Shown here piece after piece: positions 6,465-46,269 of a stretch of 54,108 bases of DNA. The notes beneath the pieces are model-generated. The model had not been told where the DNA came from, made no database searches, and saw only the letters and a program-made list of their open reading frames with translations. The number at the start of each line of letters is the position of its first letter. Position 1 is the stretch's first letter. The stretch is from an uncultured Bacilli bacterium (GTDB lineage Bacteria; Bacillota_I; Bacilli_A; RF39; UBA660), in NCBI GenBank assembly GCA_947632685.1, contig CANRQD010000001.1, positions 1 to 54,108 of the forward strand. Reading direction: 5' to 3'. A program made the translations under genes and the position numbers.

Positions 6465-6477
6465 AGGAGGAATATAT

Positions 6478-6777: not shown

Positions 6778-6779
6778 TT

Positions 6780-7376: not shown

Positions 7377-7419
7377 AAAATATATTTTTTCATATTTTAT
7401 ATTAAGGAGATGGACAAAT

Positions 7420-7605
7420 ATGAAAAAAATATTATATTTTCTAAAAAGAGTGATATTAAGTTTTATAATTTTATATAGTTATAATTTGATAGCTGCAAAT
7501 TTTAATATGATAATTCCAATTAATGTGATTACAGTAGGTTTAATAACAGTTTTAGGTGTACCATCTTTAATTGCTTTATTGATTATTAAAATAGTAGTTT
7601 TGTAA
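7420..7605 (+). CDS. bofA: BofA-like inhibitor of pro-sigma-K processing (small membrane protein)
   Basis: 61 aa with 2 TM helices. The C-terminal IPINVITVGLITVLGVPSLIALLIIKIVV resembles B. subtilis BofA (VPINLVTTAISGFLGIPGIAALVVIK, recalled from memory). Its position after recR is syntenic. Confidence 0.6.
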   Translation: MKKILYFLKRVILSFIILYSYNLIAANFNMIIPINVITVGLITVLGVPSLIALLIIKIVVL

Positions 7606-7622
7606 GATTGTGAGGTGATGTT

Positions 7623-8453: not shown

Positions 8454-8455
8454 AA

Positions 8456-9238
8456 ATGTATGATGTAATAGGTGTTAAATTTGATTTATCAAATAATATA
8501 TATTTTTTTGAAGTAAATAATTTATCTTTAAATAAAGGTGACAAAGTTATAGTTGAGTCAGAAAATATATTAGATTTAGGTATTTGTGTAACAAATATAA
8601 AAAATGAATCAAAAGATAATTTAATTTTTCCTCTAAAAAAGGTTATTAGAAAAGTTACTAAAAAGGATATAGATATACATAATAAAAATAAAGAAGAAGC
8701 GTCTGAAGCGTTAAAATATGCAAAAAAATGTGCAAAAAATATAAAATTACCAATGAATTTTGTATCAGCATATTATACATATGATAAAAATCAATTATAT
8801 TTTAACTTTACATCTGATGAAAGAGTTGATTTCAGGGAATTAGCAAAAAAATTAGCTCAAAGATTTAAAACTCGTATAGAATTAAGACAAATTGGTGTAA
8901 GAGATAAAGCCAAATTAATCGGTGGAATTGGACCTTGTGGTTTATTTTTATGTTGTAATACTTTTTTAACTGATTTTAATAGTGTATCTATAAATATGGC
9001 AAAAAATCAATTTTTGGCATTAAATCCTTCAAAAATAAATGGTGTATGTGGTAGATTATTATGCTGTTTAAATTATGAAGATGATATTTATACTCAAATA
9101 AAGAAAGATTTACCTAAAGTAGGATCTACAATAACAACAGAAAATGGTACTGGTAAAGTAATTTCAGTAAATATATTTAATAAAAGTTATAAGCTAGAAT
9201 TAGATAAATTTAATATTGTGGAAGAGTTTATAAAATAA
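8456..9238 (+). CDS. yaaT: PSP1-domain protein (YaaT/RicT, stage 0 sporulation / RNase Y regulator complex)
   Basis: Has the PSP1 C-terminal cysteine cluster GPCGLFLCC...CGRLLCCLNYE. It is syntenic after holB. Confidence 0.8.
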   Translation: MYDVIGVKFDLSNNIYFFEVNNLSLNKGDKVIVESENILDLGICVTNIKNESKDNLIFPLKKVIRKVTKKDIDIHNKNKEEASEALKYAKKCAKNIKLPMNFVSAYYTYDKNQLYFNFTSDERVDFRELAKKLAQRFKTRIELRQIGVRDKAKLIGGIGPCGLFLCCNTFLTDFNSVSINMAKNQFLALNPSKINGVCGRLLCCLNYEDDIYTQIKKDLPKVGSTITTENGTGKVISVNIFNKSYKLELDKFNIVEEFIK

Positions 9239-9239
9239 T

Positions 9240-9974
9240 ATGGAAGTACTAAATGATTTGTTAGGATATAAAAATAGAAAAATATATCAAAATACCGATT
9301 GGTTTTCTTTTACCTTAGATAGTGTTTTATTAGCGAATTTTGTAGTTATATCAAAAAGAACAAAACAAATATTGGATATTGGTACTGGAACTGGTGCTAT
9401 ACCTCTTATATTATCAACAAAAACTAATTTAGTAATAGATGCAATAGAAATCCAAAAATCAGTAGCTGAATTATTTAAAAAATCAATTAAATATAATAAA
9501 TTAGATAATCAAATAAATTTAATTGTTAATGATATATTAAATTATTCAAAAAATAAAAATAATTATTATGATATAGTAATATCTAATCCACCTTATTATA
9601 GTGAAACTACTATAAATAATGTAAATGAAAAAACAATTGCGCGACATGAAATAAATTTAAATTTAGAAAAATTAATAAAAGTCAGTAAAAAGATTTTAAA
9701 GGACAATGGAAAATTATATTTAGTTTATAATAGTGATAGATTTATTGAATTAATTAGTCAATTATCTAAAAATAATTTTGTTATTAAAAGAATTAGATTT
9801 GTACATAAAAGTTTAGAAAAAGAAGGAAGTATGGTATTAGTTGAGTGTACAAAAAATGGTAAACCTGGATTAAAAATAGAAAAGCCTTTTATTTTAAATA
9901 TTGATAATAAAAAAACATTGGAATATGAAAATATTTTAAATGGTGGTGATTGTAATGAGTCAAAAGAGCTATGA
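9240..9974 (+). CDS. SAM-dependent methyltransferase, YabB/TrmN6-like (tRNA m6A37)
   Basis: Contains the SAM-binding DIGTGTGAIPL and the NPPYY catalytic motif. It is syntenic with B. subtilis yabB. Confidence 0.7.
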   Translation: MEVLNDLLGYKNRKIYQNTDWFSFTLDSVLLANFVVISKRTKQILDIGTGTGAIPLILSTKTNLVIDAIEIQKSVAELFKKSIKYNKLDNQINLIVNDILNYSKNKNNYYDIVISNPPYYSETTINNVNEKTIARHEINLNLEKLIKVSKKILKDNGKLYLVYNSDRFIELISQLSKNNFVIKRIRFVHKSLEKEGSMVLVECTKNGKPGLKIEKPFILNIDNKKTLEYENILNGGDCNESKEL

Positions 9975-10797
9975 TAATAATAAATCTAATTTATATTTAA
10001 TACCAACACCTATAGGTAATCTAGAAGATATTACGATTAGGTCTTTAAAATTATTAGCAGATGTTGATTTAATTCTATGTGAAGATACAAGGGTTACAGG
10101 AAATTTATTAAAAAAATATAAAATTAAAAAAAAATTAATAAGTTGTTATGAATATAATGAAGATAAAGTAAAAAATGATGTTATAAAATTTTTAAATGAA
10201 GGTAAAAATATTGGTCTTGTTACTGATCAAGGTACACCTATAATAAGTGATCCTGGATTTAAAGTTGTTTTGGAAACTATAAATAATGGCTTTAATGTAA
10301 TAGGCTTACCTGGAGCGACTGCCTTTGTTCCTGCACTAATATCATCAGGTATTTTTCCATCAAAATTTTTATTTTATGGTTTTTTAAATGCTAAAAATAA
10401 TAAACAACTTGATGAACTTAATTTATTAAAGAATATTCCATATACAATTATTTTTTATGAAGCACCACATCGTATAATTAATACATTAAACAATATAAAG
10501 AAAGTAATGGGTAATAGAAATGTATGTATTGCACGAGAAATATCTAAGTTGTATGAAGAAATATATCGTGGTAGTATTGAAGATGTTATATTAGAACTTG
10601 AAAATGTAAAAGGAGAAATAGTTTTAATAGTAGAAGGTAATACTATAAAGGAGGATTATTCTAATATATCAATTTTGGAGCATATAAATTTATATTTAGA
10701 AGATGGTATGTCTGAAAAAGAAGCTATAAAATTAGTTGCAAAAGAACGTAATGTAGCTAAATCAATTATATATAAAGAATATCATCAAAAAAAATAA
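9955..10797 (+). CDS. rsmI: 16S rRNA (cytidine1402-2'-O)-methyltransferase
   Basis: LYLIPTPIGNLEDIT, CEDTR and the tetrapyrrole-methylase fold are present. I place the start at ATG 9955. The track ORF starts earlier at 9940. Confidence 0.9.
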   Translation: MSQKSYDNNKSNLYLIPTPIGNLEDITIRSLKLLADVDLILCEDTRVTGNLLKKYKIKKKLISCYEYNEDKVKNDVIKFLNEGKNIGLVTDQGTPIISDPGFKVVLETINNGFNVIGLPGATAFVPALISSGIFPSKFLFYGFLNAKNNKQLDELNLLKNIPYTIIFYEAPHRIINTLNNIKKVMGNRNVCIAREISKLYEEIYRGSIEDVILELENVKGEIVLIVEGNTIKEDYSNISILEHINLYLEDGMSEKEAIKLVAKERNVAKSIIYKEYHQKK

Positions 10798-23132: not shown

Positions 23133-23924
23133 ATGAGTACATTTAATTTTAAAAAAAAATATGGTCAAAATTTTTTAAATAATAGTGAAATAATAAAAAA
23201 AATAGTTGATATTTCAAATATTGATGATAATTCACTTATTATTGAAGTTGGTCCTGGTGGTGGTAGTTTAACTAAAGAACTTTCATTAAAATCAAAAAAT
23301 GTACTTTGCTATGAAATAGATTATGAATTGAAAGATTATTTAAATGAAATATTTAAAAATAGTAATGTTGATATTATATATGATGATTTTTTAAATAGAA
23401 ATATCGAAGAGGATATAAAAAATTATCAATATGACGATTTATATTTTGTAAGTAATGTACCATATTATATAACTACTCCTATATTAATAAAATTAATAGA
23501 ATCAAATTTAAATTTTAAAAAAATAGTAATGATGGTTCAAGAAGAGGTAGGAGAAAGATTTTCTGCAACTATTAATACAAGAAATTATGGTTCTATTACG
23601 GTATTTTTAAATTATTATTTTGATATAAAAAAAGAATTTAAAGTTAATAGACGTGAATTTACTCCAATGCCTAATGTGGATAGTATTGTAATATCTTTTA
23701 CAAGAAAAAATAATTTATTAAAATTGAAAAATAAAGAAATGTTTTTTAAATTAGTAAGGGACTCATTTAAATTTAAAAGAAAAAATATAAAAAATAATTT
23801 AAAAAATTATGATTTAGATATTGTTGAACAAATTTTGAAAGAAAATAATTTAGATTTATCATGTCGTGCTGAGCAGATTTCTATGGAAATATTTGTTAAA
23901 ATTAGTAATGCCATATCAAAGTGA
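23133..23924 (+). CDS. rsmA: 16S rRNA (adenine1518/1519-N6)-dimethyltransferase
   Basis: KKYGQNFL, the EVGPGGGSLT SAM motif, and NVPYYITTPI. Confidence 0.95.
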   Translation: MSTFNFKKKYGQNFLNNSEIIKKIVDISNIDDNSLIIEVGPGGGSLTKELSLKSKNVLCYEIDYELKDYLNEIFKNSNVDIIYDDFLNRNIEEDIKNYQYDDLYFVSNVPYYITTPILIKLIESNLNFKKIVMMVQEEVGERFSATINTRNYGSITVFLNYYFDIKKEFKVNRREFTPMPNVDSIVISFTRKNNLLKLKNKEMFFKLVRDSFKFKRKNIKNNLKNYDLDIVEQILKENNLDLSCRAEQISMEIFVKISNAISK

Positions 23925-23983
23925 TTCTAGTTTTAATAGAATAATTCTTTTTTTTTGTCATAAAATTAATAGGAGATGATTTT

Positions 23984-24292
23984 ATGAGTTTTGAAATTGG
24001 CGATTTAGTAACTAGAAAATCATATAATAATGATATTTTATTTAGGATAATTGATATAAATGAAAATATTGCTATTTTAAAAGGTGTAGATTTAAGATTA
24101 TATGCAGATAGTGTAATGGATGATTTAGTAAAGGAAGAAAAAGTATATAATGTAAATAAATCTGATAGGGAAATAATTAATGAAAATATTAGAAGTTTAG
24201 ATCTTAATAGAGATGAGTATTTCTATTTGCCGGGAAAGATTTTACATATTGATACTGACATTCTTAAAGTAACAATTTGCAAACCCTTATAA
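23984..24292 (+). pseudogene. yabG: 5' fragment (about 90 codons) of sporulation-specific protease gene yabG, interrupted by ICE insertion
   Basis: MSFEIGDLVTRKSYNNDILFRIIDI...LPGKILHID matches the B. subtilis YabG N-terminus (IGDMVARKSYQMDVLFRIIGI...MPGKVLHLDGD, recalled from memory). The ksgA-yabG synteny also holds. Similarity stops at about 24253-24262, then 10 unrelated codons and a stop follow. The roughly 200-aa catalytic part is absent from the window. Confidence 0.75.
24252..24273 (+). repeat. Junction repeat copy 1 (ATACTGACATTCTTAAAGTAAC)
   Basis: Its perfect 22-bp reverse complement occurs at 24580-24601. It spans the yabG/ICE junction. Confidence 0.8.
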
Positions 24293-24388
24293 AATAAGGA
24301 AAAACCAACTTTAAAATTTCTAAAAAATCTCAAAAAAAACAAAAAATAGGTAAAAAATTTAAAAAATTCTACACTTAAAAGAAGAGGG

Positions 24389-24406
24389 TGACATTTCTTA
24401 AGTAAC
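24389..24406 (+). repeat. Junction repeat copy 2, degenerate direct copy (TGACATTTCTTAAGTAAC)
   Basis: 15/18 ungapped identity to 24256-24273. A compensating 1-nt shift gives 17/18. Confidence 0.5.
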
Positions 24407-24441
24407 TAAAATTGATATATTTTTAACTAACGAAACATAAC

Positions 24442-24472
24442 AGGAATTGATATAACTTCAATTCCTTTTTTT
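24442..24472 (+). terminator. Rho-independent terminator inside the ICE left end
   Basis: Stem AGGAATTGA / TCAATTCCT with a 7-nt loop, then TTTTTT. It would block read-through from yabG into the ICE. Confidence 0.6.
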
Positions 24473-24579
24473 CTATATTTATAGCTAATTTTAGATAAAT
24501 AAAATTAAACAATTAAAAACCTATTTTTTTTAAAAAATAAAAGAAAGTAACACTAATTAAATTATAGAAATGCAAAATA

Positions 24580-24601
24580 GTTACTTTAAGAATGTCAGTA
24601 T
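24580..24601 (-). repeat. Junction repeat copy 3, inverted (GTTACTTTAAGAATGTCAGTAT)
   Basis: Perfect reverse complement of 24252-24273. The flanks are also partly symmetric (AATTTGCAAA vs TATTTTGCATTT). Confidence 0.8.
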
Positions 24602-24680
24602 GGCTGATTTCTTATTGAACTATTTTAATATAAGGAAAATTTGAATAATTTTAATTCTATTATTTAGAGAGGAGGATATT

Positions 24681-25457
24681 ATGGGAGAATTTAAGGTATT
24701 TAGAAATGGTGATTTTACTGTTATGAGTAATTATCATTTAAAAGATAAAAACTTATCATTAAAAGCAATAGGATTATTAAGTAAAATGCTAAGTTTACCA
24801 GATAATTGGGATTATTCTTTAGTTGGTCTTGTAGCAATATGTAAAGAAAGTAAAGATACAATTAGAACTACATTAAATGAATTAAAACATTATAATTATA
24901 TAGAAATAGAAAAGCTAAGAACCAAAAAAGGAACATATAGATATAATTATCTTATTTTCGAAAATCCTCGTGATAAGGCATTAAAAATAGGAAATAAACC
25001 AGATACGGAAAATCCATACCTGGTTGAGCCAGATATGGAAAATTATACCCAATATAATATTAAAGAATATAATATTAATAATAAAAAGTATAAAATAGAT
25101 AATATAGATAAAACCAAAGGTCCACATCATAAAGCATTAATCGATGAATTAATTAGATTAAATTATATAAAAGAAGATGATGAACAAATTATTTTTTATG
25201 ATAGTTTGTTTGATAAGTATATAAATAATGGTAATTCATATACAGATATTTATTCTGCAATTCATTATATCGTTCCACGAGTAATAGATAGAAATTTTAT
25301 TGATGATGATGGAAAAAATATTATGAACAAATTTGGATATTTTAAAGCAGCTATGGAATCTAATTTTAAAAAGCTTAATAGATACAAGGAAGAACTATCA
25401 GATGACGATAGTTCTTTTTGGGATAATTATGAAATTTCAGATATAGAAGGAAGGTGA
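24681..25457 (+). CDS. ICE replication-initiator/DnaD-like winged-HTH protein
   Basis: The N-terminus FTVMSNYHLKDKNLSLKAIGLLSKMLSLPDNWDYSLVGL is typical of HTH_36/RepA_N-like proteins that precede parAB in Firmicute ICEs and plasmids. A GAGGAGG RBS is present. Confidence 0.6.
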   Translation: MGEFKVFRNGDFTVMSNYHLKDKNLSLKAIGLLSKMLSLPDNWDYSLVGLVAICKESKDTIRTTLNELKHYNYIEIEKLRTKKGTYRYNYLIFENPRDKALKIGNKPDTENPYLVEPDMENYTQYNIKEYNINNKKYKIDNIDKTKGPHHKALIDELIRLNYIKEDDEQIIFYDSLFDKYINNGNSYTDIYSAIHYIVPRVIDRNFIDDDGKNIMNKFGYFKAAMESNFKKLNRYKEELSDDDSSFWDNYEISDIEGR

Positions 25458-25461
25458 GAAG

Positions 25462-26292
25462 ATGCCAAAATGTGAAGTTATTGCTGTTGCTAATCAAAAA
25501 GGTGGTGTTGGTAAAACTACAACTACATTCAATTTAGGTGTTGCTTTAGCAAAAGAAGGTAAAAGAGTTCTACTTATTGATGCTGATCCACAAGCTGATT
25601 TAACAACTTATATGGGTTGGCATAATGCTGATAGTATTCCTAATACATTATCAACAATAATGAATAAAACAATAAATGATGAGGATTTTGATATACAAAA
25701 AGCAATTCTTAAACACGATGAAGGAGTTGATTTACTTCCGTCAAATTTGGAACTTGCTTCTACAGAAGTTAGTTTAGCAAATGCAATGTGTAGAGAGTAT
25801 ACATTAAAAAATTCTATTTCACAGATAAAGAAAAATTATGACTATATATTAATTGATTGTATGCCAAGTCTTGCAATGCTTACAGTAAATGCATTAGCTA
25901 GTAGTGATAAAGTTATTATACCTGTACAATCTGAGTTTTTAGCAGCAAAAGGTATGAGTCATTTAATGAGTACTATCTTAAAAGTTAGAAAAGTTATTAA
26001 TCCAAATCTTAAAGTTGGAGGAATACTTTTAACAATGGTAGATGGTAGAACTAATTTATCAAAAGATATAAGTAAAGAATTAAAGGAAACCTATGGAACT
26101 GTTTTTAAATTATTCGATACTAAAATACCAAGAGCAGTAAAAGCTGCAGAATCATCTAGATTAGGTGAAAGTATTTTATCTTATGATAAAAGCAGTAAGG
26201 TTGCTCAAAGATATATTGACTTTGCAAAAGAGGTGATTAAATATGAACGAGAAGAAAAAACAAGAAATACCAATACCATTCAAATTAGATGA
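25462..26292 (+). CDS. parA: ParA/Soj-family partition ATPase
   Basis: Deviant Walker A NQKGGVGKTTT, plus LLIDADPQ and IIPVQSEF motifs. Confidence 0.9.
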   Translation: MPKCEVIAVANQKGGVGKTTTTFNLGVALAKEGKRVLLIDADPQADLTTYMGWHNADSIPNTLSTIMNKTINDEDFDIQKAILKHDEGVDLLPSNLELASTEVSLANAMCREYTLKNSISQIKKNYDYILIDCMPSLAMLTVNALASSDKVIIPVQSEFLAAKGMSHLMSTILKVRKVINPNLKVGGILLTMVDGRTNLSKDISKELKETYGTVFKLFDTKIPRAVKAAESSRLGESILSYDKSSKVAQRYIDFAKEVIKYEREEKTRNTNTIQIR

Positions 26293-27211
26293 TTTTTATA
26301 CAACTCAAGAGCAAAGAGATGAAGAAGGTAAGGAAAAAGTTGAAGAAATAGACATTTCATTAATTGATAATTTTAAAGAACATCCATTTAAAGTAATAGA
26401 AGATAGTGATATGGAATCATTAAAGGAAAGTATTAAAACAAACGGATTATTATCTCCTGTAATTATAAGAAAAAAAGCTAATGGTAGATATGAAATGTTA
26501 TCAGGACATAGAAGAAAGTTTGCTTGTGAAAATCTTGGAATGAGTAATATAAAGTGTATTATTAAGGATTTATCAGATGATGAAGCAACAATTTTTATGG
26601 TAGATAGCAATCTTCAAAGAGAAAAACTTTTACCATCAGAAAAAGCATTTGCTTATAAAATGAAATATGATGCCTTAATTCACAAAAGATCTAAATGCCA
26701 ACTTAACACAAAGGTGTGCCAAGTTGGCACAGTAATTAGAAGTGATGAATTGTTATCTGAAGAACTTGGAGAAAGTGCAAGACAAATTCAAAGATATATG
26801 AGACTAACTCATTTAATTCCAGAATTATTGAAGTTAGTTGATAATTCAGAAATAAAAGATAAATCTATCCCTTCAATTGCTTTATCTCCAGCAGTAGAAT
26901 TATCCTATTTAAAAGAATCTGAACAAACAATATTAAATAATTATATTAGTTGTAATTTAGTTACTCCTAGTCATTCACAAGCAATTGCTTTAAAAAATTT
27001 AAGTCAAAAAGGACTTTTATCAGATATAACATTAAATAATATTATGGATAAAGAAAAACCTAATCAGATACCTCAATTCAAAATAAAAGAGGAAAAATTA
27101 TATAAAGTTATTCCTAAAAATTTAGCAAGAGATAAAATAGAAGATTTTGTCTTAAAAGCCTGTGAATATTATTCTAAAAAATTAAGACAGAAAGATAGAG
27201 AAGGGAGGTGA
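26243..27211 (+). CDS. parB: ParB/Spo0J-like N-terminal domain protein
   Basis: The ParB box GLLSPVIIRKKANGRYEMLSGHRRKFA is present, as is an HTH region. It overlaps the parA 3' end and has an AGAGGTGA RBS. Confidence 0.85.
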   Translation: MNEKKKQEIPIPFKLDDFYTTQEQRDEEGKEKVEEIDISLIDNFKEHPFKVIEDSDMESLKESIKTNGLLSPVIIRKKANGRYEMLSGHRRKFACENLGMSNIKCIIKDLSDDEATIFMVDSNLQREKLLPSEKAFAYKMKYDALIHKRSKCQLNTKVCQVGTVIRSDELLSEELGESARQIQRYMRLTHLIPELLKLVDNSEIKDKSIPSIALSPAVELSYLKESEQTILNNYISCNLVTPSHSQAIALKNLSQKGLLSDITLNNIMDKEKPNQIPQFKIKEEKLYKVIPKNLARDKIEDFVLKACEYYSKKLRQKDREGR

Positions 27212-27961: not shown

Positions 27962-28018
27962 AAATATATAGAAGCACATATAGTGCTTTTTTTTATAGAA
28001 AAACGAAAGGATGATAAA

Positions 28019-29791
28019 ATGAAGAAAATTAAAAATAAAATATTAAATATAATGTTAATAGTAATTACATTAGTTACATCTATTTCATCAATAGATGTAA
28101 AAGCATATACAACAAATGACACACTTATTTTAGATGAAAATTATAAATTTTGGGTTGCAATATATAATAGAGCAAACACTCATATGGTTGCAACACAGGA
28201 AACAATGATTAGGAGATCCTCTGATAATAGACCAGTTTATTGTATTCAACCTCATATTCAATTTTATGAAGGTCAAGTTACTGGTATAGTTGATAGTAAT
28301 ACAATGGTATCAATATCAGGATTAAGCTCTGAACAATTAGAAAGGATAAAATTAGTATCATATTATGGATATGGATATGGTAATCATACTGCTATAGAGT
28401 GGTATTATGCTACACAATTATTAATATGGCAAACAACAAATCCTGGATATGTTTATGCTATAGCTGATGGAGACCGTAGTTTAACACCATCATCAAGATA
28501 TGATTCATATTATAATGAAATAAATTCATTAGTTAATAGTCATACTACAGCACCAAGTTTTGCTAGGCAAACATTTGAAATGAAGAATAATGAAACTCTA
28601 ACTATTCCAGATACAAATAATGTATTAGGAAAATTCTATGAAGGATCAGAAAATGAATATTATAAAGCAGAAATAAGTGGTAACAATTTAGTTATTACAG
28701 CTAAAAAAGGATATACTGGTACTATTGAATTAAGAGTTAAACGTAATGATAACCCTCCTATGATATATGAGGGAGATAATCAATTATGTATGTCTGCAGG
28801 AGATCCAGTAATGATGATGACAAGATTAAATATTTTTATTACTACAGAATTTAAAGGATATAAAGTTTATGGAGATAAAGAAGATGGATATTATAGACCA
28901 GAAAAAAATGCTGAATTTGAAATTTATGATAATAAAACAAATCAATTAATAACTACTTTAACATCAAATGAGCAAGGATTAATTGAATATAATTTTAGAA
29001 TAGGTGAATATCGAATCCATCAAACTAAAGGTAAAGAAGGATTTAAACTTGTTAAAGATTATATTTTAATTGTAGATGGTAGTAATTTAAAAGAGATAGT
29101 CTATTTTCAAAATAATGCCATAACAGGTAGTTTAGAATTTTCAAAGGAAGATTTATCTACAGGAAAACCACTTCCAAATACATTAGTAGAAATATATAAT
29201 GCTGATACAGATGAATTAGTTTATTCTGGTAGAACAGGAAACGATGGAAAAATTGTAGTTAATAATTTAAAATATGGAAAATACTATATTTTAGAAAAAG
29301 AGGCACCAGAGGGATATACTTTAAATGAAGAAAAAATGTATTTTGAAATATTGGAAGATGGAAAAGTAGTAAAAGCTACAATGAAAGATGAAAAAATAAA
29401 AGGAACATTGGAATTTACAAAAGAGGATTTATCTACAGGTGAGCCACTTCCAAATACATTAGTAGAAATATATAATGCTGATACAGATGAATTAGTATAT
29501 TCTGGTAGAACAGGAAATGATGGAAAAATAGTAATCAAAGATTTGGAATATGGAAAATACTATATTTTAGAGAAAGAAGCACCAGAAGGATATACTTTAA
29601 ATGAAGAAAAAATGTATTTTGAAATATTAGAAGATGGAAAAGTAGTAAAAGCTACAATGAAAGATGAAAAAATAATTGAAGTTCCAGATACAGATAAGTC
29701 AGAAATTAAAACAACTATTATTGGTGGTTTTATATTAATATTAATTGGTGCAGATATAATTTTATATGCAAGAAAAAAAAGAAAAAAGTAA
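28019..29791 (+). CDS. Surface adhesin with thioester domain and tandem Cna-B/SpaA-type repeats
   Basis: A signal peptide is present (start ATG 28019). The thioester-domain signature is Cys in PVYCIQP plus Gln in ATQLLIWQ (TQxxIW). Two 92-aa near-identical repeats follow. The C-terminus is VPDTD, a hydrophobic helix, then a KKRKK tail, which is sorting-signal-like. Confidence 0.8.
   Translation: MKKIKNKILNIMLIVITLVTSISSIDVKAYTTNDTLILDENYKFWVAIYNRANTHMVATQETMIRRSSDNRPVYCIQPHIQFYEGQVTGIVDSNTMVSISGLSSEQLERIKLVSYYGYGYGNHTAIEWYYATQLLIWQTTNPGYVYAIADGDRSLTPSSRYDSYYNEINSLVNSHTTAPSFARQTFEMKNNETLTIPDTNNVLGKFYEGSENEYYKAEISGNNLVITAKKGYTGTIELRVKRNDNPPMIYEGDNQLCMSAGDPVMMMTRLNIFITTEFKGYKVYGDKEDGYYRPEKNAEFEIYDNKTNQLITTLTSNEQGLIEYNFRIGEYRIHQTKGKEGFKLVKDYILIVDGSNLKEIVYFQNNAITGSLEFSKEDLSTGKPLPNTLVEIYNADTDELVYSGRTGNDGKIVVNNLKYGKYYILEKEAPEGYTLNEEKMYFEILEDGKVVKATMKDEKIKGTLEFTKEDLSTGEPLPNTLVEIYNADTDELVYSGRTGNDGKIVIKDLEYGKYYILEKEAPEGYTLNEEKMYFEILEDGKVVKATMKDEKIIEVPDTDKSEIKTTIIGGFILILIGADIILYARKKRKK
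29125..29676 (+). repeat. Two tandem, near-identical 276-bp coding repeats inside the adhesin gene
   Basis: The marker ATTTATCTAC occurs at 29151 and 29427, giving a 276-nt period. Long identical runs include CCACTTCCAAATACATTAGTAGAAATATATAATGCTGATACAGATGAATTAGT. Confidence 0.85.
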
Positions 29792-30392
29792 ACCAAATAT
29801 ATTAATAATAGTTGGTTTTTTATTTCTATTTTCTGGGTTAAGTGTAATAGTATATAATTATATTTCAAATAAATTAATTATTAATAAAGAAAAAGATGCT
29901 ATAGAAAGATACTATATTGATGACAAAGAAGCTGTTATTGATAATGGTTCTACTAATGACTTTAAAGATAATAATGAAGTTAAAAGCAATTCAAAATTAG
30001 AATATATTGCAATACTTAAAATACCTAAAATTGATTTAGTAAGAGGTCTCGTAGATCTAAAAAGTCATCTAAATAGTATAAATTATAATGTTGAGATTAT
30101 AGATGGTTCTGATATGCCTGACAAAGAAAAAGGTAATATGATATTGGTAGCACATTCAGGAAATTCACGTATTTCATATTTTAGAAATTTAGATAAATTG
30201 AAAAGAAATGACAAAGTAACTCTTGATTATAATGGTATAACTTATAATTATAAAGTTGTTAATATATATGACATTGAAAAAACAGGTTCTGTTAATATTG
30301 TTAAAAATAATGATACTACAACATTAACACTTGTAACTTGCAGACATAACACTAATAAACAAATAATAATAATATGTGAATTAGAAAAATAG
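29766..30392 (+). CDS. Sortase (dedicated to the adjacent adhesin)
   Basis: N-terminal TM helix, LVAHSG (His), the TLVTCRH active-site Cys motif, and a downstream Arg. It overlaps the adhesin's 3' end. Confidence 0.85.
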   Translation: MQEKKEKSKPNILIIVGFLFLFSGLSVIVYNYISNKLIINKEKDAIERYYIDDKEAVIDNGSTNDFKDNNEVKSNSKLEYIAILKIPKIDLVRGLVDLKSHLNSINYNVEIIDGSDMPDKEKGNMILVAHSGNSRISYFRNLDKLKRNDKVTLDYNGITYNYKVVNIYDIEKTGSVNIVKNNDTTTLTLVTCRHNTNKQIIIICELEK

Positions 30393-32380: not shown

Positions 32381-33691
32381 ATAGCAGTAGTTAAAATATG
32401 GAAAGTAAAATCAAATTTAAAACAAGTTCTTGATTATGCCAAAGATGATGAAAAAACTAAAGTAACAGAATATACAGAATTAAGTAATTTAATGAATTAT
32501 GTAAAAAATGGAGATAAGACAGAAAAATTATTATATATTTCTGGAATTAATTGTGATCCAAATAATGCTACAAAAGAAATGGTTGCTATCAAAAAGAAAT
32601 TTATGAAAACTGATGGTATTTTAGCTTGGCATTCCTATCAATCTTTTTGTGAGGGTGAAGTTACCGCAGATGAAGCACATAAAATAGGTTTGCAGCTTGC
32701 TAACGAAATGTGGGGAGATAAGTTTCAAGTTGTAGTAACTACACACTTAAATACTAAACATATTCATAATCACTTTGTATTAAACTCTGTATCTTTTGTT
32801 GATGGCAAAAAGTACAATGCCGATAGAAATTCATATGCCGAGTTTAGAAGATTAAATGACCTTATTTGTATGGAACATAATAAGAGTTATTTACAAGAGA
32901 AAAAAAATAAATCTGGAATAAATTATGTTAATTATCAAAATAGAAATATTAAGTATTCAAATTATTATAAAAAAGCAAAAGAAGATTTGGATTTAGCTAT
33001 TGCAGTATCAAACAGTTATAATGATTTTAAAAATACATTAAATAATTTAGGATATGAAATTACACTACGAGCTGGGAAACTTAGTATAAGAGGTAAGGAT
33101 TATAAAAGAAATATACGAATAGAAAGATATTTTGGAGAAGACTATTCTATTGATAATATAAAAAAACAAATCAAAGGATTATATTTACCTGAAAAGAAAT
33201 TATATTATAAAAATAGAAAGCCTATAAGTGTTCTATCTGTTATATCTAAACCTAAATATAATAGCTTTTATTCGATGTATATAAGATACTGTAATATATT
33301 AAATAACTATCCTAGCTTTATAAAAAAATATAACGTATCTTCTGTTATGAAAGAAGATATAAAAAAATTGGATAAGTTTAGCAAGCAAGCTATTATGTTA
33401 GTTAATAATAATATAGAAACAGAAGATAAATTTTTTGAATTTTTAAATAGTAAGGTTTATGAATTAAGTGATTTAAAACAGAAAAGAGAAGAATTATGGA
33501 GAAAATATAAAATGTGTAATGAAGATGAAAAATTAGAAATAAAAAAAGAAATTAATAATATTTCTAATAATATTAGTAAAGTAAATGAAGAAGTAAAAAT
33601 GTGTGAAGATATAAGGTTAAGAAAAGAGGATATAAAAAAAGATCTTAAAATTATGAAAGAAAGGGAGATGATAATAGATGAACACATCTAG
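32381..33691 (+). CDS. Relaxase/mobilization nuclease (MobA/VirD2-type) with apparent non-canonical ATA start
   Basis: The histidine triad is HLNTKHIHNHFVLNSV. The conserved N-terminus (I)AVVKIWKVKSNLKQVLDYAKDDEKT is in frame upstream of the first ATG (32492). An AGGTGA RBS (32369-32374) lies 6 nt before ATA 32381, and an in-frame stop sits at 32375. Confidence 0.8.
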   Translation: MAVVKIWKVKSNLKQVLDYAKDDEKTKVTEYTELSNLMNYVKNGDKTEKLLYISGINCDPNNATKEMVAIKKKFMKTDGILAWHSYQSFCEGEVTADEAHKIGLQLANEMWGDKFQVVVTTHLNTKHIHNHFVLNSVSFVDGKKYNADRNSYAEFRRLNDLICMEHNKSYLQEKKNKSGINYVNYQNRNIKYSNYYKKAKEDLDLAIAVSNSYNDFKNTLNNLGYEITLRAGKLSIRGKDYKRNIRIERYFGEDYSIDNIKKQIKGLYLPEKKLYYKNRKPISVLSVISKPKYNSFYSMYIRYCNILNNYPSFIKKYNVSSVMKEDIKKLDKFSKQAIMLVNNNIETEDKFFEFLNSKVYELSDLKQKREELWRKYKMCNEDEKLEIKKEINNISNNISKVNEEVKMCEDIRLRKEDIKKDLKIMKEREMIIDEHI

Positions 33692-34424
33692 TGATGCAGC
33701 AGAACAAATTGTAAGAATGTCTTTAGAAGGATTCCAAGTAACAGCAAAAGTTGTAGGTAGTGGAGCAAAAGATGTAGCAGCTCTTTTAATTGCTATTATG
33801 AAAGATAAAAGAAAAACAGCTGGTAAAACAAATCTTACAAATATGTTAAAGTCTGGCAAAGAGTTGAAAGTATTTTCTGTAAGAAAAGATGAATTAAAAA
33901 AGTTTACTGAAGAAGCTAAAAGATATGGAGTATTATATAGTTTATTATTAAATAAGAAAGATAAATCCTCAGATAGTATAGTGGATATTATGGTTAGGTC
34001 AGAAGATGCTGCAAAAATTAATCGTATTGTAGAGAAATTTAAGTTATCCAGTTATGACGAAACTACTATTAGAAGTGAAATTGAAAAATCTATAAATGAC
34101 CGAACTAGTAAAGATAGGGGAGTTAAAACTAAACCTATAGAAGAAAAACAAAAAGAAGAACAACAAACTGCACCTATTAGGAAAGAAGAACAATCATTAA
34201 ACCCCCATTTGGCAAAGACCGAAAAAAACCCTCAGTCAAAGCCTTCCTCAAAAATGCTAAAGACTTCGGATCAGGGTACTAAATTGAAAGATAAACCTTC
34301 TGTAAAAGAAAAGCTAAATAAAGCTAAAGAAGAAGTTAAATATCGTGAATCAATTAAGGATAAATCAGAAGTATCTAAAATAGTTAACAAAAAGAAAAAA
34401 GAGAACAAGAGGACAAATAGATAA
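33678..34424 (+). CDS. PcfB/DUF3801-family conjugation protein
   Basis: AAEQIVRMSLEGFQVTAKVVGSGAKDVAALLIAIMK...ELKVFSVRKDELKKFTEEAKRYGVLYS matches the PcfB pattern. Confidence 0.7.
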   Translation: MNTSSDAAEQIVRMSLEGFQVTAKVVGSGAKDVAALLIAIMKDKRKTAGKTNLTNMLKSGKELKVFSVRKDELKKFTEEAKRYGVLYSLLLNKKDKSSDSIVDIMVRSEDAAKINRIVEKFKLSSYDETTIRSEIEKSINDRTSKDRGVKTKPIEEKQKEEQQTAPIRKEEQSLNPHLAKTEKNPQSKPSSKMLKTSDQGTKLKDKPSVKEKLNKAKEEVKYRESIKDKSEVSKIVNKKKKENKRTNR

Positions 34425-34621
34425 TGAAGGATATTATAAAAATTCTAGAGCTAGATAAATATGAATTAGGAATAATAATTAATGCTTTAAATGAATTCAG
34501 AAATAAACTTATACAGGAGCAAAGAGAAACAGATGTAGTAGATGAAGTATTATTGAAAACTTTAGATGCCCCAGAAAAAAAAAGATATTTTCACAAAGAC
34601 CGTTTCATAGATGATAGATGA
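34424..34621 (+). CDS. Small hypothetical ICE protein
   Basis: 65 aa. It is translationally coupled on both sides through ATGA overlaps. Confidence 0.45.
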   Translation: MKDIIKILELDKYELGIIINALNEFRNKLIQEQRETDVVDEVLLKTLDAPEKKRYFHKDRFIDDR

Positions 34622-36432
34622 AAAATAATTCTAATGTTCCTATATATTATTATGTTATTGGAATTATACCAGTAATATGGATTTCATTATTAATAGCACC
34701 ATCAGTAAGTGGAGGATTACCTTCAGTAATTAAGGATTTTTCAAAGTATATGAATAATCCTTTTTCTATTGTTTGGTGTAATGATTCCATAAAGACTATT
34801 ATTATTCTACTTATTATTTATATATTAGGAATTGGTATTTATATATCTACAAGAAAAAATTATAGAAAAGGAGAAGAACACGGTAGTGCAAAATGGGGTA
34901 ATGCAAATAAAATTAATAAAAAGTATGAACAACAACCATTTTCAAATAATAAAATATTGACTCAAAATGTATGTATTGGATTTGATGGAAGAAAACATAG
35001 GAGAAATTTAAATACACTTGTAATAGGTGGAAGTGGTGCAGGAAAAACAAGATTTTTTGCAAAGCCAAATGTAATGCAAGCAAACACATCACTAATTGTT
35101 TTAGATCCTAAAGGAGAAATAGCAAGAGATGAAGGTCATTTACTTGAAAAAAAAGGATATGTAGTAAAAGTTTTAGATTTAATAAATATGGATAGGTCTC
35201 ATTGCTATAACCCTTTTGTGTATCTTCAATCAGATAATGATGTACAGAAACTTGTAACAAATTTGTTTAAAGCAACAACTCCTAAAGGAAGTCAATCTAA
35301 TGATCCATTTTGGGATACAGCAGCATCGATGCTTTTATTAGCATTGATTTTTTATTTATGGTATGAAGCACCTAAAGAAGAACAAAATTTTCCTATGGTT
35401 ATGGAGATGTTAAGAGCTGGTGAAGTAAAAGAAGATGATGATGGTTATGTCAGCCCACTTGATATATTGTTTAATCAATTAGAAATAGAAAATCCTAACC
35501 ATATAGCTCTCAAGTATTATAGAGATTATCATTCTGGTTCAGCTAAAACATTAAAATCGATTCAAATAACACTTGCTTCTAGATTAGAAAAATTTAATCT
35601 TGAAAGTTTAGCAAGTTTAACACAAACTGATGAATTGCAATTAGAAACAATAGGAGAGAGAAAGACAGCTTTATTTGCAATAATACCAGATAATGATACT
35701 TCATTTAATTTTTTAGTTAGTATGCTATATACTCAATTATTTCAGCAACTATTTTTTTTAGCAGACCATAAATACGGAGGTAGACTACCTGTACACGTAC
35801 ATTTCTTAATGGACGAATTTGCCAATGTTTCATTGCCAGATGATTTTGACAAAATATTATCTGTAATGAGGTCTCGAGAAGTATCAGTATCTATAATTTT
35901 ACAAAATTTAGCTCAATTAAAAGCATTATTTGAAAAACAATGGGAGTCTATTGTTGGAAATTGTGATGAATTCTTATATTTAGGTGGAAATGAACAATCG
36001 ACACATAAATATGTGAGTGAATTAATGGGTAAATCGACAATAGATATGAATACATATGGTAAAAGTACAGGCCATTCTGGGAATTATTCAACTAACTATC
36101 AATTAAATGGTAGAGAATTGATGACTCCAGATGAAGTAAGACTTTTGGATAATCAATACTCAATTTTGTTTATAAGAGGTGAGAGACCAGTAATAGATTT
36201 TAAATATGATGTATTAAAACATCCTAATGTTCTATTATCAGCAGATGGAAATGCTAAACCATATATACACGGAGATATTACTCATTCAATAGCTTCAGTA
36301 AATATAGATTTTTCTAATGTAACTAGATTACAAAATAATGATAATGAACAAGAAACAAATATACTTGATGAATATGATATTGTTTCATCTGAAGAAATTG
36401 ATAAATATTTAAAGAAAGAAGGAATTATATGA
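34618..36432 (+). CDS. Type IV coupling protein (VirD4/TraG-like)
   Basis: Two N-terminal TM helices, Walker A GGSGAGKT, and Walker B LMDEFAN. It sits in the relaxase-proximal position. Confidence 0.9.
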   Translation: MKNNSNVPIYYYVIGIIPVIWISLLIAPSVSGGLPSVIKDFSKYMNNPFSIVWCNDSIKTIIILLIIYILGIGIYISTRKNYRKGEEHGSAKWGNANKINKKYEQQPFSNNKILTQNVCIGFDGRKHRRNLNTLVIGGSGAGKTRFFAKPNVMQANTSLIVLDPKGEIARDEGHLLEKKGYVVKVLDLINMDRSHCYNPFVYLQSDNDVQKLVTNLFKATTPKGSQSNDPFWDTAASMLLLALIFYLWYEAPKEEQNFPMVMEMLRAGEVKEDDDGYVSPLDILFNQLEIENPNHIALKYYRDYHSGSAKTLKSIQITLASRLEKFNLESLASLTQTDELQLETIGERKTALFAIIPDNDTSFNFLVSMLYTQLFQQLFFLADHKYGGRLPVHVHFLMDEFANVSLPDDFDKILSVMRSREVSVSIILQNLAQLKALFEKQWESIVGNCDEFLYLGGNEQSTHKYVSELMGKSTIDMNTYGKSTGHSGNYSTNYQLNGRELMTPDEVRLLDNQYSILFIRGERPVIDFKYDVLKHPNVLLSADGNAKPYIHGDITHSIASVNIDFSNVTRLQNNDNEQETNILDEYDIVSSEEIDKYLKKEGII

Positions 36433-36804: not shown

Positions 36805-37641
36805 GTGAGTGATAATTGGGTTGTACAGAATCTGCAAAATGCACTTGAAACTTGGAATTCCAAACTTGCTGATATATGGAACTTAGTTACACAAACACCA
36901 GAGACATTTAAAGGTGGAGCAATATGGAAAGTTATTAATAATATTTATGGTGGAATGCAGTCAATAGGATTAGCATTACTTGTATTATTTTTTGTTGTTG
37001 GAGTTATAAAAACCTGTGGTTCTTTTGCAGAAACAAAAAAACCTGAACACGCATTCAAATTATTTATAAGATTTGCAATAGCAAAAATAGTTGTAACATA
37101 TGGGATGGATTTGATGTTAGCACTATTTAAAATATCACAAGGAATGGTTTCTAAAGTGATGACGATTTCTAAAATTACTGGTTCTACTACTACCACATTA
37201 CCAACAGAAATGATTAAGGCTATAGAAGATTGTGGTTTTTTTGAATCAATTCCCTTATGGGCAGTTACGTTAATTGGTGGTTTAGTTGTAACAGTTCTAT
37301 CGTTTATTATGATAATGACTGTATATGGAAGATTTTTTAAATTATATTTATATACAGCTTTAGCACCAATACCACTTTCAACTTTTGCAGGAGAACCTAC
37401 ACAAAATATTGGAAAAAGCTTTTTAAAAAGTTATTCTGCAGTTTGTTTGGAAGGTGTAATTATAATTCTCTCGTGCATTATATTTTCATTATTTGCATCA
37501 ACTCCACCTGTAGTAGATACAAGTGCAGCAGCAGTTACACAAGTATGGAAATATATAGGAGAATTAGTATTTAATATGTTGGTTCTTGTGGGAACAATAA
37601 AAATGTCTGATAGAGTTGTTAGAGAAATGATGGGTTTATGA
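36805..37641 (+). CDS. VirB6/TrbL-like polytopic conjugation membrane protein
   Basis: GTG start behind a GGAGGTGA RBS. It has 5-6 TM helices and sits between the Maff2 and PrgI/VirB4 genes. Confidence 0.65.
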   Translation: MSDNWVVQNLQNALETWNSKLADIWNLVTQTPETFKGGAIWKVINNIYGGMQSIGLALLVLFFVVGVIKTCGSFAETKKPEHAFKLFIRFAIAKIVVTYGMDLMLALFKISQGMVSKVMTISKITGSTTTTLPTEMIKAIEDCGFFESIPLWAVTLIGGLVVTVLSFIMIMTVYGRFFKLYLYTALAPIPLSTFAGEPTQNIGKSFLKSYSAVCLEGVIIILSCIIFSLFASTPPVVDTSAAAVTQVWKYIGELVFNMLVLVGTIKMSDRVVREMMGL

Positions 37642-37679
37642 TTTTAATAAAAAAATTTAAATAGAAGGAAAGTGATAAT

Positions 37680-37910
37680 ATGAATCAAATTGATTATATA
37701 AAAAAAGAATATCCCATAGGCACAAGGATTAAATTAGTTTCTATGGAAGATAATTATCCAATCTCATCAAATACAAAGGGAACTGTAGACTTTATTGATG
37801 ATGAAGGTCAAATACATATGAAATGGGATAATGGTAGTACATTAGCACTGATATATGGTGTTGATAAATTCGAAAAAATAAATGAAAAAAATAAAGATAG
37901 GGAGAGATGA
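37680..37910 (+). CDS. DUF4314-like small protein
   Basis: The pattern YPIGTRIKLVSMEDNYPISSNTKGTVDFIDDEGQIHMKWDNGSTLALIYGVD is common in Firmicute ICEs. Confidence 0.55.
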   Translation: MNQIDYIKKEYPIGTRIKLVSMEDNYPISSNTKGTVDFIDDEGQIHMKWDNGSTLALIYGVDKFEKINEKNKDRER

Positions 37911-37913
37911 AAA

Positions 37914-38441
37914 ATGAGAAAACAATATGATGATTTTACACAATTAAAATTAAAAGATATGAGTAAAAGTATGAGTGATATGACTTATAAATATATAAAT
38001 CCAGAAACACAAATGCCAACGAAAGTTCCACCAGGTCATTATGAAAAAATATTAGACCAAGTAACTGAAAAATATATGGCTGATATTACGTCAAGGCAAT
38101 TTTTAACTATTATGTTTACCCAATTAAATAATTTAAAAAAGGAAGATGAAAAATATTTTAATCAAGCATTATTATGTATGGATTTAGGTTTGAATCCAAA
38201 AGATTTAAGAATTGATGAACAAATAGCTATTGAGTATACAAATGATTTTATCAGTGAGAAAAAAAACTTTGAAAAGAAAAAATTTCATTTTCTTAATGAT
38301 GATATAGTAGAAACTTTTAAAGAAGCTAAAAATGATCCATCACTACAAGCACAGATAGTAAGAGAGTCAAATAAGTTTGAAGATATGGAAAATAGTATGT
38401 TTAGAAACAACGATACTCGTGATGAAAGGGATGAGAGATAA
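37914..38441 (+). CDS. Hypothetical ICE protein
   Basis: 175 aa, no motif recognised. Confidence 0.45.
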   Translation: MRKQYDDFTQLKLKDMSKSMSDMTYKYINPETQMPTKVPPGHYEKILDQVTEKYMADITSRQFLTIMFTQLNNLKKEDEKYFNQALLCMDLGLNPKDLRIDEQIAIEYTNDFISEKKNFEKKKFHFLNDDIVETFKEAKNDPSLQAQIVRESNKFEDMENSMFRNNDTRDERDER

Positions 38442-38445
38442 GTAT

Positions 38446-39456
38446 ATGTTAGAAATAGAAAAGTTCTTATTAGATAATAATTTAAATGATGAAAATTTTT
38501 ATACAGTATATGAATTGCTAAAATTACATAAAGAAGTATATGATGATAGATTTATTATTATATATTTTCAAAAATGTAGAGATGGACTACTGCATAATGC
38601 TTATGAAGTTGGTGGTTATTTTGATATAAAAGATAAATGTTTGTATGAAACAGGGTATTTGTTATGTTTACTACTAGAAGAAAGTAAATTAATTAAACAA
38701 TCTTCTTTTTCTAATCTTTATAGTAATTTAACAAAGGATATAGATAATTATATAAACAATTATGCACTTATAAATAAGGAAGTTTTAAAACCATTAGGCA
38801 GAGAAAATTATTATAAAAATGATTTGCCTTATATAAATAGTAATGAACGTAAAGTAAGAGAAAGTTTTATAAAAGGTGATGATAATATAATAAATTATTA
38901 TCATTCTTGCTCACATTCTCTAATTGAATATTCAGATGAATATGAAACAAAGGATTTATTTATAGATTATTTAAATAATCCAGACAAAATAATCAATAAG
39001 TATGCAGAAATGATAATTAATAAAAATAAGGATTCATTAGGAGAAAGCTTATTAGTTTATGAGTATGAAATTAATTATTATAAAAAACTTATAAAAAATA
39101 AAAATAATGAATTTAGAGATATTTATTTAAATAAAAAAATATATAATTCTATAAAAGATATAGATGCCAAAACTATTAATATTACTATTAAATATGGAAA
39201 TAGTGATTTAACATTTAATTATGATTATATCATCTTAAAAAGAGATTTATTAAATGATTGTAGAGGTAGCAGTGCTTGGGGTGTTTCTTATGATAAAGTA
39301 TCAAATTTTATAAAAGAAAAAACAAATTCTCTTGATAGTAGAAAAACTGAAGAATTTCTTTTTTCACATATATCATCCATAACTTATGGAAGAAAATCAC
39401 TGTATAAAAACGATAATATAAAAGAAAACCAAAGTAAAGAAAAAGGTGATAAGTAA
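38446..39456 (+). CDS. Hypothetical ICE protein
   Basis: ATG 38446 (MLEIEKFLLDNNL...), 336 aa, N/K/Y-rich, no motif recognised. Confidence 0.45.
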   Translation: MLEIEKFLLDNNLNDENFYTVYELLKLHKEVYDDRFIIIYFQKCRDGLLHNAYEVGGYFDIKDKCLYETGYLLCLLLEESKLIKQSSFSNLYSNLTKDIDNYINNYALINKEVLKPLGRENYYKNDLPYINSNERKVRESFIKGDDNIINYYHSCSHSLIEYSDEYETKDLFIDYLNNPDKIINKYAEMIINKNKDSLGESLLVYEYEINYYKKLIKNKNNEFRDIYLNKKIYNSIKDIDAKTINITIKYGNSDLTFNYDYIILKRDLLNDCRGSSAWGVSYDKVSNFIKEKTNSLDSRKTEEFLFSHISSITYGRKSLYKNDNIKENQSKEKGDK

Positions 39457-39824
39457 TGGAAGTGAAAATTAACAAGGAAATTAGAGATTATACCGAAAGT
39501 ATTTATTTTGGATTATCCTTAAGACAGTTCATTTTTTCTTTATTAGCTTGTATTATGGCTATAATATTATATTTTATATTTAGACCATACTTTAATATAG
39601 AAACATTATCTTGGTTATGTATTCTTGGTGCTGCTCCTTTTGCAGTAATTGGATTTATAACATATAACGGTATGAATGCAGAGGAATTTATTTTGGCATA
39701 TATTAAATCAGAGATTTTAACACCTAAGTATTTAGCATTTAAACCTACTAATTTTTATTATGAGTTACTAAAGAATAGAATAGGAGATGATAAGAAAGAT
39801 GAGGACAATAAGGAATCTATTTAA
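39456..39824 (+). CDS. PrgI/TcpE-like (VirB3-like) membrane protein
   Basis: REIRDYTESIYFGLSLRQFIFSLLACIMAIILYF plus a second TM helix. It lies directly upstream of VirB4. Confidence 0.7.
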   Translation: MEVKINKEIRDYTESIYFGLSLRQFIFSLLACIMAIILYFIFRPYFNIETLSWLCILGAAPFAVIGFITYNGMNAEEFILAYIKSEILTPKYLAFKPTNFYYELLKNRIGDDKKDEDNKESI

Positions 39825-42132: not shown

Positions 42133-42188
42133 TAAAATCGTTTAATGAATGCATTTTTGCATTCATTTTTTTTGAAAGAAGGTGAAAA

Positions 42189-44693: not shown

Positions 44694-44764
44694 ATATGAA
44701 TATTTCACATTTACTATTATAAATTCAATAATTTTCGCATTTTAGTTTGAGAGAGGGAATTTTT

Positions 44765-45070: not shown

Positions 45071-45080
45071 AGGTGATTTT

Positions 45081-46234: not shown

Positions 46235-46269
46235 TATTATGTAAATTTATAATGAGTAATATGTGAAGA

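Follow-up and report, generated by a model that had tools for sequence, protein, structure and literature searches.

Left junction of an integrative conjugative element within the sporulation gene yabG of an uncultured Bacilli bacterium, and its possible excision in the mother cell

We analysed a 54,108-nt stretch of DNA from an uncultured Bacilli bacterium, called the window throughout and taken at its full length, in which the sporulation gene yabG is interrupted by an integrative conjugative element (ICE). The window is the entire contig C1 of a metagenome bin and nothing past position 54108 is present in the assembly; the bin amounts to 1.18 Mb in 112 contigs, is 75% complete, and its smallest retained contig measures 2771 nt. 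The open reading frame (ORF) that follows ksgA (23984–24292, + strand, 102 aa) matches Pfam Peptidase_U57 (positions 2–118, E 4.4e-20) and the NCBIfam model spore_yabG, TIGR02855. By its Pfam and NCBIfam identity, the gene that is split here within its coding sequence is yabG, a mother-cell sporulation gene. The features around the split are the following.

23926–23983, + strand: yabG promoter region with a mother-cell-type motif, GAATAAT-N13-CATAAAATTA, just upstream of the ribosome-binding site (RBS); strongly conserved before yabG in relatives.
23984–24253, + strand: 5' fragment of yabG, codons 1–90, ending ...LPGKILHID, identified by Pfam U57 (E 4.4e-20), TIGR02855 and the relatives.
24225–24278, + strand: attL, made of the host half-site, the crossover within GA(T) at 24251–24253 and then the element half-site P' (ACTGACATTCTTAAAGTAAC); defined from the empty site L031 and from 11 intact and 12 occupied alleles.
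24254–24292, + strand: 12 foreign codons (TDILKVTICKPL) and a stop, contributed by the P' arm of the element; at least 51 protein clusters have a tail of this kind (xDxxLSN...).
24389–24408, + strand: second direct P'-like copy (GACATTTCTTAAGTAACTA), found by sequence comparison.
24442–24473, + strand: intrinsic-terminator-like hairpin (24442–24466) with a T run; 0 expected in shuffles, conserved in the complete element of genome G232.
24575–24601, − strand: the P' arm again in inverted form, with 26 of its 27 bases complementary to 24252–24278.

The position of the break was established against intact alleles. Residues 1–90 of the window protein are 72–75% identical to residues 1–92 of the intact 262-aa YabG of same-genus genomes, and the window protein tracks intact YabG for these 90 residues, to ...EYFYLPGKILHID. 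The final shared base is 24253, the last of an Asp codon (GAT, 24251–24253), which puts the break at 24253/24254: from 24254 onwards the window reads ACTGACATTCTTAAAGTAAC, whereas intact alleles read GGnGAyGAAGAyTAT (GDEDYL). Intact yabG is present in 15 of 16 same-genus genomes; the four copies that we read out each encode 262 aa and lie in the order membrane protein - ksgA - yabG - (veg) - spoVG - yabP - yabQ. An empty site from the same species (L031, sample ERZ27249610, 99% identical in the N-terminal part) reads CATATTGAT|GGGGACGAAGATTAT. The original prediction, made from the letters of the window, had a YabG-like N-terminus diverging at about 24253–24262 where ICE sequence begins, and proposed a comparison with relatives that have an intact yabG; with the same-species empty site and the intact alleles as references, the break is precise to the base and falls inside that range. 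The same junction was recovered from three other independent metagenome assemblies at 99.95–100% identity. On the record of the empty site, an IS110-like transposase gene stands upstream of yabG in place of ksgA (L031:1–333), and its yabG carries a one-base frameshift after codon 103, on a contig at 1.4x coverage.

The catalytic part of YabG had been predicted to be absent from the rest of the window, and C1 indeed holds no codons past 90. A tblastn search with the YabG of relatives located residues 244–262, the last 19 codons, at one tip of contig C38, where veg, spoVG, yabP and yabQ come next in the order known from relatives; since this is the normal synteny, the 3' half of yabG lies at its usual chromosomal location. 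Codons 91–243 and the right part of the element are lost in an assembly gap, and neither the end of C1 nor that of C38 overlaps with another contig of the bin. A tblastn match of YabG 91–178 on contig C76 (31% identity, E 0.14) was weak and taken as chance. A second yabG was not found in this 75%-complete bin, where a profile search of all contigs gave the 5' fragment only, in agreement with the expectation that no intact copy exists elsewhere. The window contains no recombinase gene up to 54108, and none of the five resolvase-domain genes of the bin is an orthologue of the yabG-type recombinases described below (best 36% identical); they are found on C59 in spoVD, on C16 in an ABC-transporter ATPase gene, on C10 beside pepC and on C90 without yabG nearby. 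An exact look-up of the 2062-aa RHS-repeat protein of the element gave no further contig, and look-ups with Veg and with YabG fragments for the right end returned short, low-coverage contigs only. Looking beyond 54108, as the original prediction proposed, therefore yields a part of what it anticipated: the contig ends there, the last 19 yabG codons stand on C38, and the arrangement of a recombinase followed by the 3' half is seen in relatives only.

The same insertion point is occupied in many other genomes. A search of public data with the 102-aa fragment returned 326 short YabG N-terminal fragments, and among the best 120 clusters of these about 70 reach ...LPGK(I/V)LHID and then continue into a foreign tail (at least 51 of the window-like xDxxLSN type, six xVCSLSKSKEK and three GDEVQEIKVA). 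Two such fragments, traced to long contigs, are followed directly and in the same orientation by genes for ParA/ParB, an adhesin, a sortase, a relaxase, a DUF3801 protein and VirD4. One of the two comes from G232 (GCA_017625395.1, Bacilli bacterium), in which the two parts of yabG, codons 1–90 and 91 to the end, are on one contig, 51,854 bp apart. The right end of this element carries two tandem genes for large serine recombinases (LSRs), 529 and 519 aa long, in the orientation of yabG and about 260 bp before its 3' half, and its conjugation backbone (ParA, ParB, relaxase, VirD4, VirB6-like and VirB4) is syntenic with that of the window, with the identities listed further below. Of 301 genomes of the host family, 10 have an orthologue of the terminal LSR, 48–73% identical to the query, and yabG is split in every one of them. 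Each terminal LSR is preceded by a second recombinase 36–39% identical to the query (the two tandem LSRs are about 37–39% identical to each other), and in 7 of the 10 the 3' half of yabG is at most 1.5 kb downstream of the recombinase. In four genomes both halves are on one contig, with inserts of 9.6, 11.3, 13.7 and 15.4 kb that carry surface proteins, an ABC/bacteriocin-like cluster or an insertion sequence (IS) and retain both recombinases intact; conjugation genes were not found on these four inserts. Both halves of yabG are open in all 12 carriers examined. The recombinase followed by an in-frame 3' part of yabG, foreseen for the far end of the element, is thus present in G232 and in nine other genomes, and the corresponding end in our own genome is unassembled.

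Some limits apply to this survey. A Pfam scan across the family could not by itself isolate split yabG, since intact genes often match twice around a divergent linker. A contig scan with the recombinase alignment returned mostly distant LSRs and added two close relatives, both from an uncultured Bacilli bacterium. LSRs related to the query (E<=1e-40) are present in 171 of 301 family genomes of about 1 Mb, often several in each; for a lineage of small genomes it is unusually rich in LSR elements. In one genome, G130, a 5' fragment of yabG with attL stands directly before two recombinases (L088, C2:42000–59000), an intact yabG lies 11 kb further along the same contig and a separate 3' fragment is on contig C52, an arrangement that could reflect a strain mixture, a duplication or the product of imprecise excision.

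Comparison of the junctions defined the attachment site and the recombination cassette. At the far end of the element the order is a ~40-codon ORF, two tandem LSR genes, attR and then the co-oriented 3' half of yabG. The recombinases of the relatives have the N-terminal catalytic YxRxS motif, with Y9, R11 and S13 invariant in 9 orthologues of 503–524 aa, and all their NCBIfam matches are to serine-recombinase families (CcrB, XisF, YneB resolvase, IS607 transposase). The element arm at attR is conserved as GTTACTTAA-N6-GTCAGCAGAT|GG over 11 attR sites, and the arm at attL as GAT|nnnGACnnTCnnTTAAGTAAC over 12 attL sites. The attachment site has the form of an imperfect inverted repeat, GTTACTTAA-N6-GTCAG CA GA TA CTGAC-N6-TTAAGTAAC, and its inner palindrome GTCAG-CA-GA-TA-CTGAC is centred on the GA of the Asp-90 codon, a layout typical of LSR sites; the putative cleavage dinucleotide is GA. 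For attL, the symmetry centre was deduced from the set of attR sites.

A sister species, whose YabG N-terminus is 93% identical to that of the window and whose reference genome G008 has an intact yabG, provided both junctions. Six of its samples contain the element, with a left end about 95% identical to the window, and sample ERZ27249283 contains the left junction (L181) as well as the right junction (L179). On L179 the last codons of the orthologue of the second recombinase are followed by attR (GTTACTTATCAAAGGTCAGCAGAC|GGTGACGAAGAT) and by the yabG 3' half - veg - spoVG - yabP. The yabG part of the ORF at this 3' junction (P0123) is 100% identical to the intact YabG of the species over the 162 residues compared. 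The intact allele of the sister species was found in five other records, four of which are metagenome samples; with both intact and occupied alleles in hand, the element is polymorphic within the species and its removal would be scarless. Joining the flanks in silico gave an open YabG in G232 and, in the sister species, exactly its own intact protein. The reconstruction of a joined ORF suggested by the original prediction could thus be carried through in these two cases; our own genome supplies attL, the last 19 codons and the same-species empty site. A further property of L179 is a 73-codon element ORF with its own RBS, which runs in frame across attR into the yabG 3' half to form the 245-aa chimera P0123 (L179:138–875). 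The start of the chimera (VIMYARLSRE...) resembles a serine-recombinase N-terminus, and short ORFs homologous to it are found in G232, G116 and G169, where they end before the junction.

The element itself occupies the remainder of the window, where its genes are all on the + strand. Its G+C content is about 25–26%, against 19–24% in the ten kilobases preceding the junction. The genes upstream of and within the element are the following.

23133–23924, + strand: ksgA/rsmA, 16S rRNA dimethyladenosine transferase (Pfam RrnaAD, E 6.5e-55), upstream neighbour of yabG in a synteny kept in relatives.
24254–54108, + strand: ICE, of which at least 29,855 bp are assembled and the right end is not in the assembly; recognised by domain content and synteny with G232.
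24681–25457, + strand: HTH_36 protein, the first gene of the element (Pfam HTH_36, E 2.8e-07).
25462–27211, + strand: ParA and ParB partition-like genes, 53% and 49% identical to the G232 proteins.
27983–30392, + strand: SpaA/TED surface adhesin and sortase, syntenic in G232.
32492–34424, + strand: MobA/VirD2-type relaxase (E 6e-37) and DUF3801 protein, 43% and 46% identical to G232.
34618–36432, + strand: VirD4/TraG-type coupling protein (Pfam T4SS-DNA_transf, E 3.7e-63), 74% identical to G232.
36805–43772, + strand: mating-channel genes for a VirB6/TrbL-like protein, a VirB4-like ATPase (39787–42132) and a 527-aa protein, 78%, 65% and 53% identical to G232.
44159–54108, + strand: cargo, namely an M23 peptidase cassette, a Gp10_C-like protein, a 2062-aa RHS-repeat protein and a membrane protein cut at the contig end.

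The match of the VirB6/TrbL-like protein is weak, and the VirB4-like ATPase was recognised through TraG P-loop/AAA_10 domains. The cargo block at 44159–54108 has no counterpart in the G232 element. A relaxase, a coupling protein, a VirB4-type ATPase and channel components, the conjugation genes by which an ICE of the Firmicutes T4SS type is recognised, are all present; together with the synteny to the complete 51.9-kb element, they bear out the claim that an ICE with a type IV secretion system (T4SS) sits inside yabG.

The left end has further repeats. A direct copy of the left arm lies 124–160 nt inside the left end in 8 of 11 elements scanned. The inverted copy of the P' arm is confined to this element type, with none in the nine other left ends checked, and differs from the normal right-end arm (GTCAGTATGG versus GTCAGCAGAT|GG). 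In the sister species the two arms read CTTTAAG / CTTAAAG, against CTTAAAG / CTTTAAG here, and each pair is complementary over its core; such co-variation suggests that recombination, or a protein that binds both arms, maintains the match. The 296-nt segment between them may be invertible, but it has the same orientation in all five copies compared (the window and L014–L016 from its species, and the sister-species element), and no inversion was seen. A miniature inverted-repeat transposable element or an IS bounded by the 27-nt inverted repeat was rejected, there being no yabG after the right arm and no target duplication. The sequence past the right arm weakly repeats the left end of the element (repeat D4), possibly as a relic of tandem insertion. 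The terminator-like hairpin would be expected to block read-through from yabG into the element. No known RNA was found by Rfam in 23900–24720.

We then considered when excision might occur. The genome had been predicted to retain sporulation genes, and it does: spoVT and yaaT are in the window, and spoIVA (E 8.7e-110), yabP and yabQ are elsewhere in the genome. Before the first recombinase stands the conserved ~40-codon ORF (for example MKEENRELVVCVYDDNAASINDKILEAFERYL...), and upstream of it the sequence TTTTTTTCATTAA-N14-(T)CATAAAnTT is present in 5–6 of 7 relatives. This sequence resembles the motifs before spoIVA (GCATATA-N14-CATAAGCT), yabP (TCATAAA-N13-CATATAAT) and yabG (GAATAAT-N13-CATAAAAT in this genome, GAATATT in relatives) of the host. 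The motifs of the host genes and of the cassette fit the Bacillus sigma-E consensus, kmATAww, 13–14 nt, CATAcanT; the sigma factor that reads the yabG motif would be of this mother-cell kind, judging from the letters of the motif.

A second sporulation gene of the same genome is also interrupted. On contig C59 (1–8206), spoVD (NCBIfam TIGR02214; the 3' piece scores 333 bits) is in three pieces, separated by two LSR elements with sizes of about 3.2 and 3.4 kb, one of them inserted in the STFK active-site codons and the other after the SCN motif; the middle piece is 175 nt long. The same-genus genome G008 has an intact SpoVD of 641 aa that is 97% identical, and G003 and G004 also look split at the second site. 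In model spore-formers, spoVD is needed for synthesis of the spore cortex.

That an LSR system integrates the element site-specifically, and that its excision is reversible and restores the gene, is nearly certain. The fuller reading, which we slightly favour, is that the feature is attL, the left junction of an ICE put into yabG between codons 90 and 91 (HID|GD) by such a system, with excision in the mother cell restoring the gene; for the part of it that concerns timing, an excision induced specifically during sporulation, we see an even chance. Integration is at one exact position in yabG, and under this reading the cassette would be transcribed from a mother-cell-type (sigma-E/K-like) promoter. 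The element would presumably be cut out in the sporulating mother cell, which would restore YabG for spore-coat maturation while the forespore chromosome retains the element, and excision would yield the circular form needed for conjugative transfer. Extended to the whole family of small-genome gut Bacilli, the proposal would be that a portable two-recombinase cassette makes yabG a developmentally rearranged gene, as different recombinases do for spoVD and further spore genes, that conjugative carriers excise in the doomed mother cell under a mother-cell sigma factor, restore the gene and can transfer, and that the spore inherits the integrated copy at no cost; we consider this extension unlikely and offer it as speculation.

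The principal alternative to sporulation-timed excision, to which we give an appreciable but minority weight, is that a conserved stretch of yabG is no more than an attachment site that costs nothing in vegetative cells, so that carriers are yabG nulls and excision is low, linked to conjugation and unconnected with sporulation. The wide spread of LSR elements in the family speaks for this explanation. It also gains from the non-sporulation gene that is split in the same genome: a 548-aa LSR element on C16 (~5885–10478) interrupts the ABC-transporter ATPase gene between its LSGGMRQRVA signature and Walker B, and landing in a coding sequence is therefore by itself no proof of developmental control. 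Occupied and empty alleles segregate among samples as those of an ordinary mobile element do, and those that we found are in different samples, which strain polymorphism also explains; no sample with an occupied site yielded an excision product, an empty site or a circle. The gene is missing from 25 of 158 good-quality family genomes, and B. subtilis and C. difficile can form spores without it; a null allele may therefore be tolerated. Also weighing against sporulation timing, the right end of our own element, with its recombinases and attR, is not in the assembly, and the recombinases would be 30–50 kb from the yabG promoter and behind a terminator. The loose promoter pattern occurs at 0.31 per kb in the genome, in DNA of 23% G+C, and the sequences that display it are homologous and not independent; a search for the strict pattern gave no match ahead of the recombinases in spoVD, in the ABC gene and on C10. 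Against a mere attachment site, on the other hand, the 9.6–15.4 kb islands in yabG keep both recombinases and both att sites although they cannot conjugate, which counts for sporulation timing, and so does the absence of decay from either half of the gene in any carrier examined. The promoter motif of the cassette, like that of host mother-cell genes, points the same way, as does yin, a yabG element of Clostridium botulinum discussed below, whose excision from yabG depends on growth phase. A split spoVD is, moreover, hard to square with permanent inactivation in a lineage where spoIVA, spoVT and yabPQ are kept.

Two further explanations carry far less weight than either of these. Gene function without excision, in which the catalytic 3' half of YabG is expressed alone from the element, is very improbable. 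The sister-species ORF that runs in frame across attR into the 245-aa chimera is what could be said for it; in most of the other elements, G232 among them, the P arm (GTTACTTAA) contains stop codons that shut this frame. In an AlphaFold (AF2) model of intact YabG (pLDDT 64, pTM 0.62), a small N-terminal beta domain is joined to an alpha/beta catalytic domain whose first strand is formed by residues 86–89, and the break at 90/91 parts this strand from the remainder; on this model of moderate confidence, the 3' half lacks core strand 1 and by itself should not fold, a point that also counts for sporulation timing. That the junction is an artefact, either a chimeric metagenome contig or a yabG truncated by deletion, is scarcely credible. 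The fragmented state of the bin and the lack of most of the 3' half speak for it; the identical junction in three other assemblies, the 95%-identical junction in six sister-species samples, the common break point in dozens of protein clusters and the yabG tail in normal synteny on C38 all speak against it.

The insertion point recurs in dozens of sequence clusters and in at least 12 genomes; the cassette moves between conjugative and non-conjugative cargo. If excision is timed by sporulation, horizontal transfer would go hand in hand with a terminal cell fate, with an element that could leave the dying cell yet stay in the germ line, and the family would offer a large natural set of LSR/att pairs with likely built-in control of directionality. 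If it is not, the family still shows a conserved sporulation gene that gives mobile DNA a safe place to reside throughout a gut lineage of which little is known. The window is a partial instance, with its right end missing, and adds confirmation and context; it is not the best specimen.

Several known systems share parts of this arrangement. Clostridial conjugative transposons of the Tn5397/TndX type are integrated by an LSR at sites with a central dinucleotide, and their target is an intergenic GA. SCCmec likewise uses two different LSRs, CcrA and CcrB, with rlmH as target where here it is a sporulation gene; NCBIfam CcrB is the best match to both recombinases (86 and 124 bits), far under its cut-off of 900, and they are not Ccr proteins. 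Excision of the Anabaena fdxN element from its gene, in a cell that differentiates terminally, is the work of another LSR, XisF; the NCBIfam model of XisF scores 82 and 71 bits with the two recombinases, below the cut-off of 375, and host, target and element type differ. The classical intervening elements of sporulation genes are skin in sigK, SPbeta in spsM, gin in gerE and, in B. weihenstephanensis, the elements in spoVFB and spoVR (PMC6957869, a review of the class; PMC5595907, PMC4191935). Our element has in common with them that it splits a mother-cell gene, which its precise excision would rebuild, and that its family has an attL-int-(rdf)-attR unit portable between types of element. Those elements are prophages, remnants or small non-phage elements for which excision in the mother cell was shown experimentally, whereas the element described here is an apparently complete conjugative one with two recombinases instead of one, and is known from sequence alone. 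A natural ICE in spsM was considered as a published precedent and set aside, as PMC6957869 shows an engineered exchange of recombination units instead. Our full-text literature searches turned up no paper that describes a conjugative element as the intervening element of yabG or of another sporulation gene.

The nearest known counterpart is yin of C. botulinum V73, which interrupts yabG and carries an LSR (Douillard et al. 2023, Viruses 15:2431, PMC10747680). Its excision restores an intact yabG and produces a circle, increases as cultures sporulate, and a SigK-type promoter has been proposed for its directionality factor (PMC10747680). Expression of yabG in the mother cell of B. subtilis and C. 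difficile is reported in work cited in PMC10747680. The same paper states that other yabG insertions are absent from public genomes (PMC10747680), a statement that fails for metagenome-derived genomes. In yin, a prophage-like element of a single strain, the one recombinase is the first gene after the 5' end of yabG. The element described here is instead conjugative, with a relaxase and a T4SS; its relatives carry two tandem recombinases at the 3'-proximal end, and the HID|GD site is occupied in many species, with the cassette riding on unrelated cargo.

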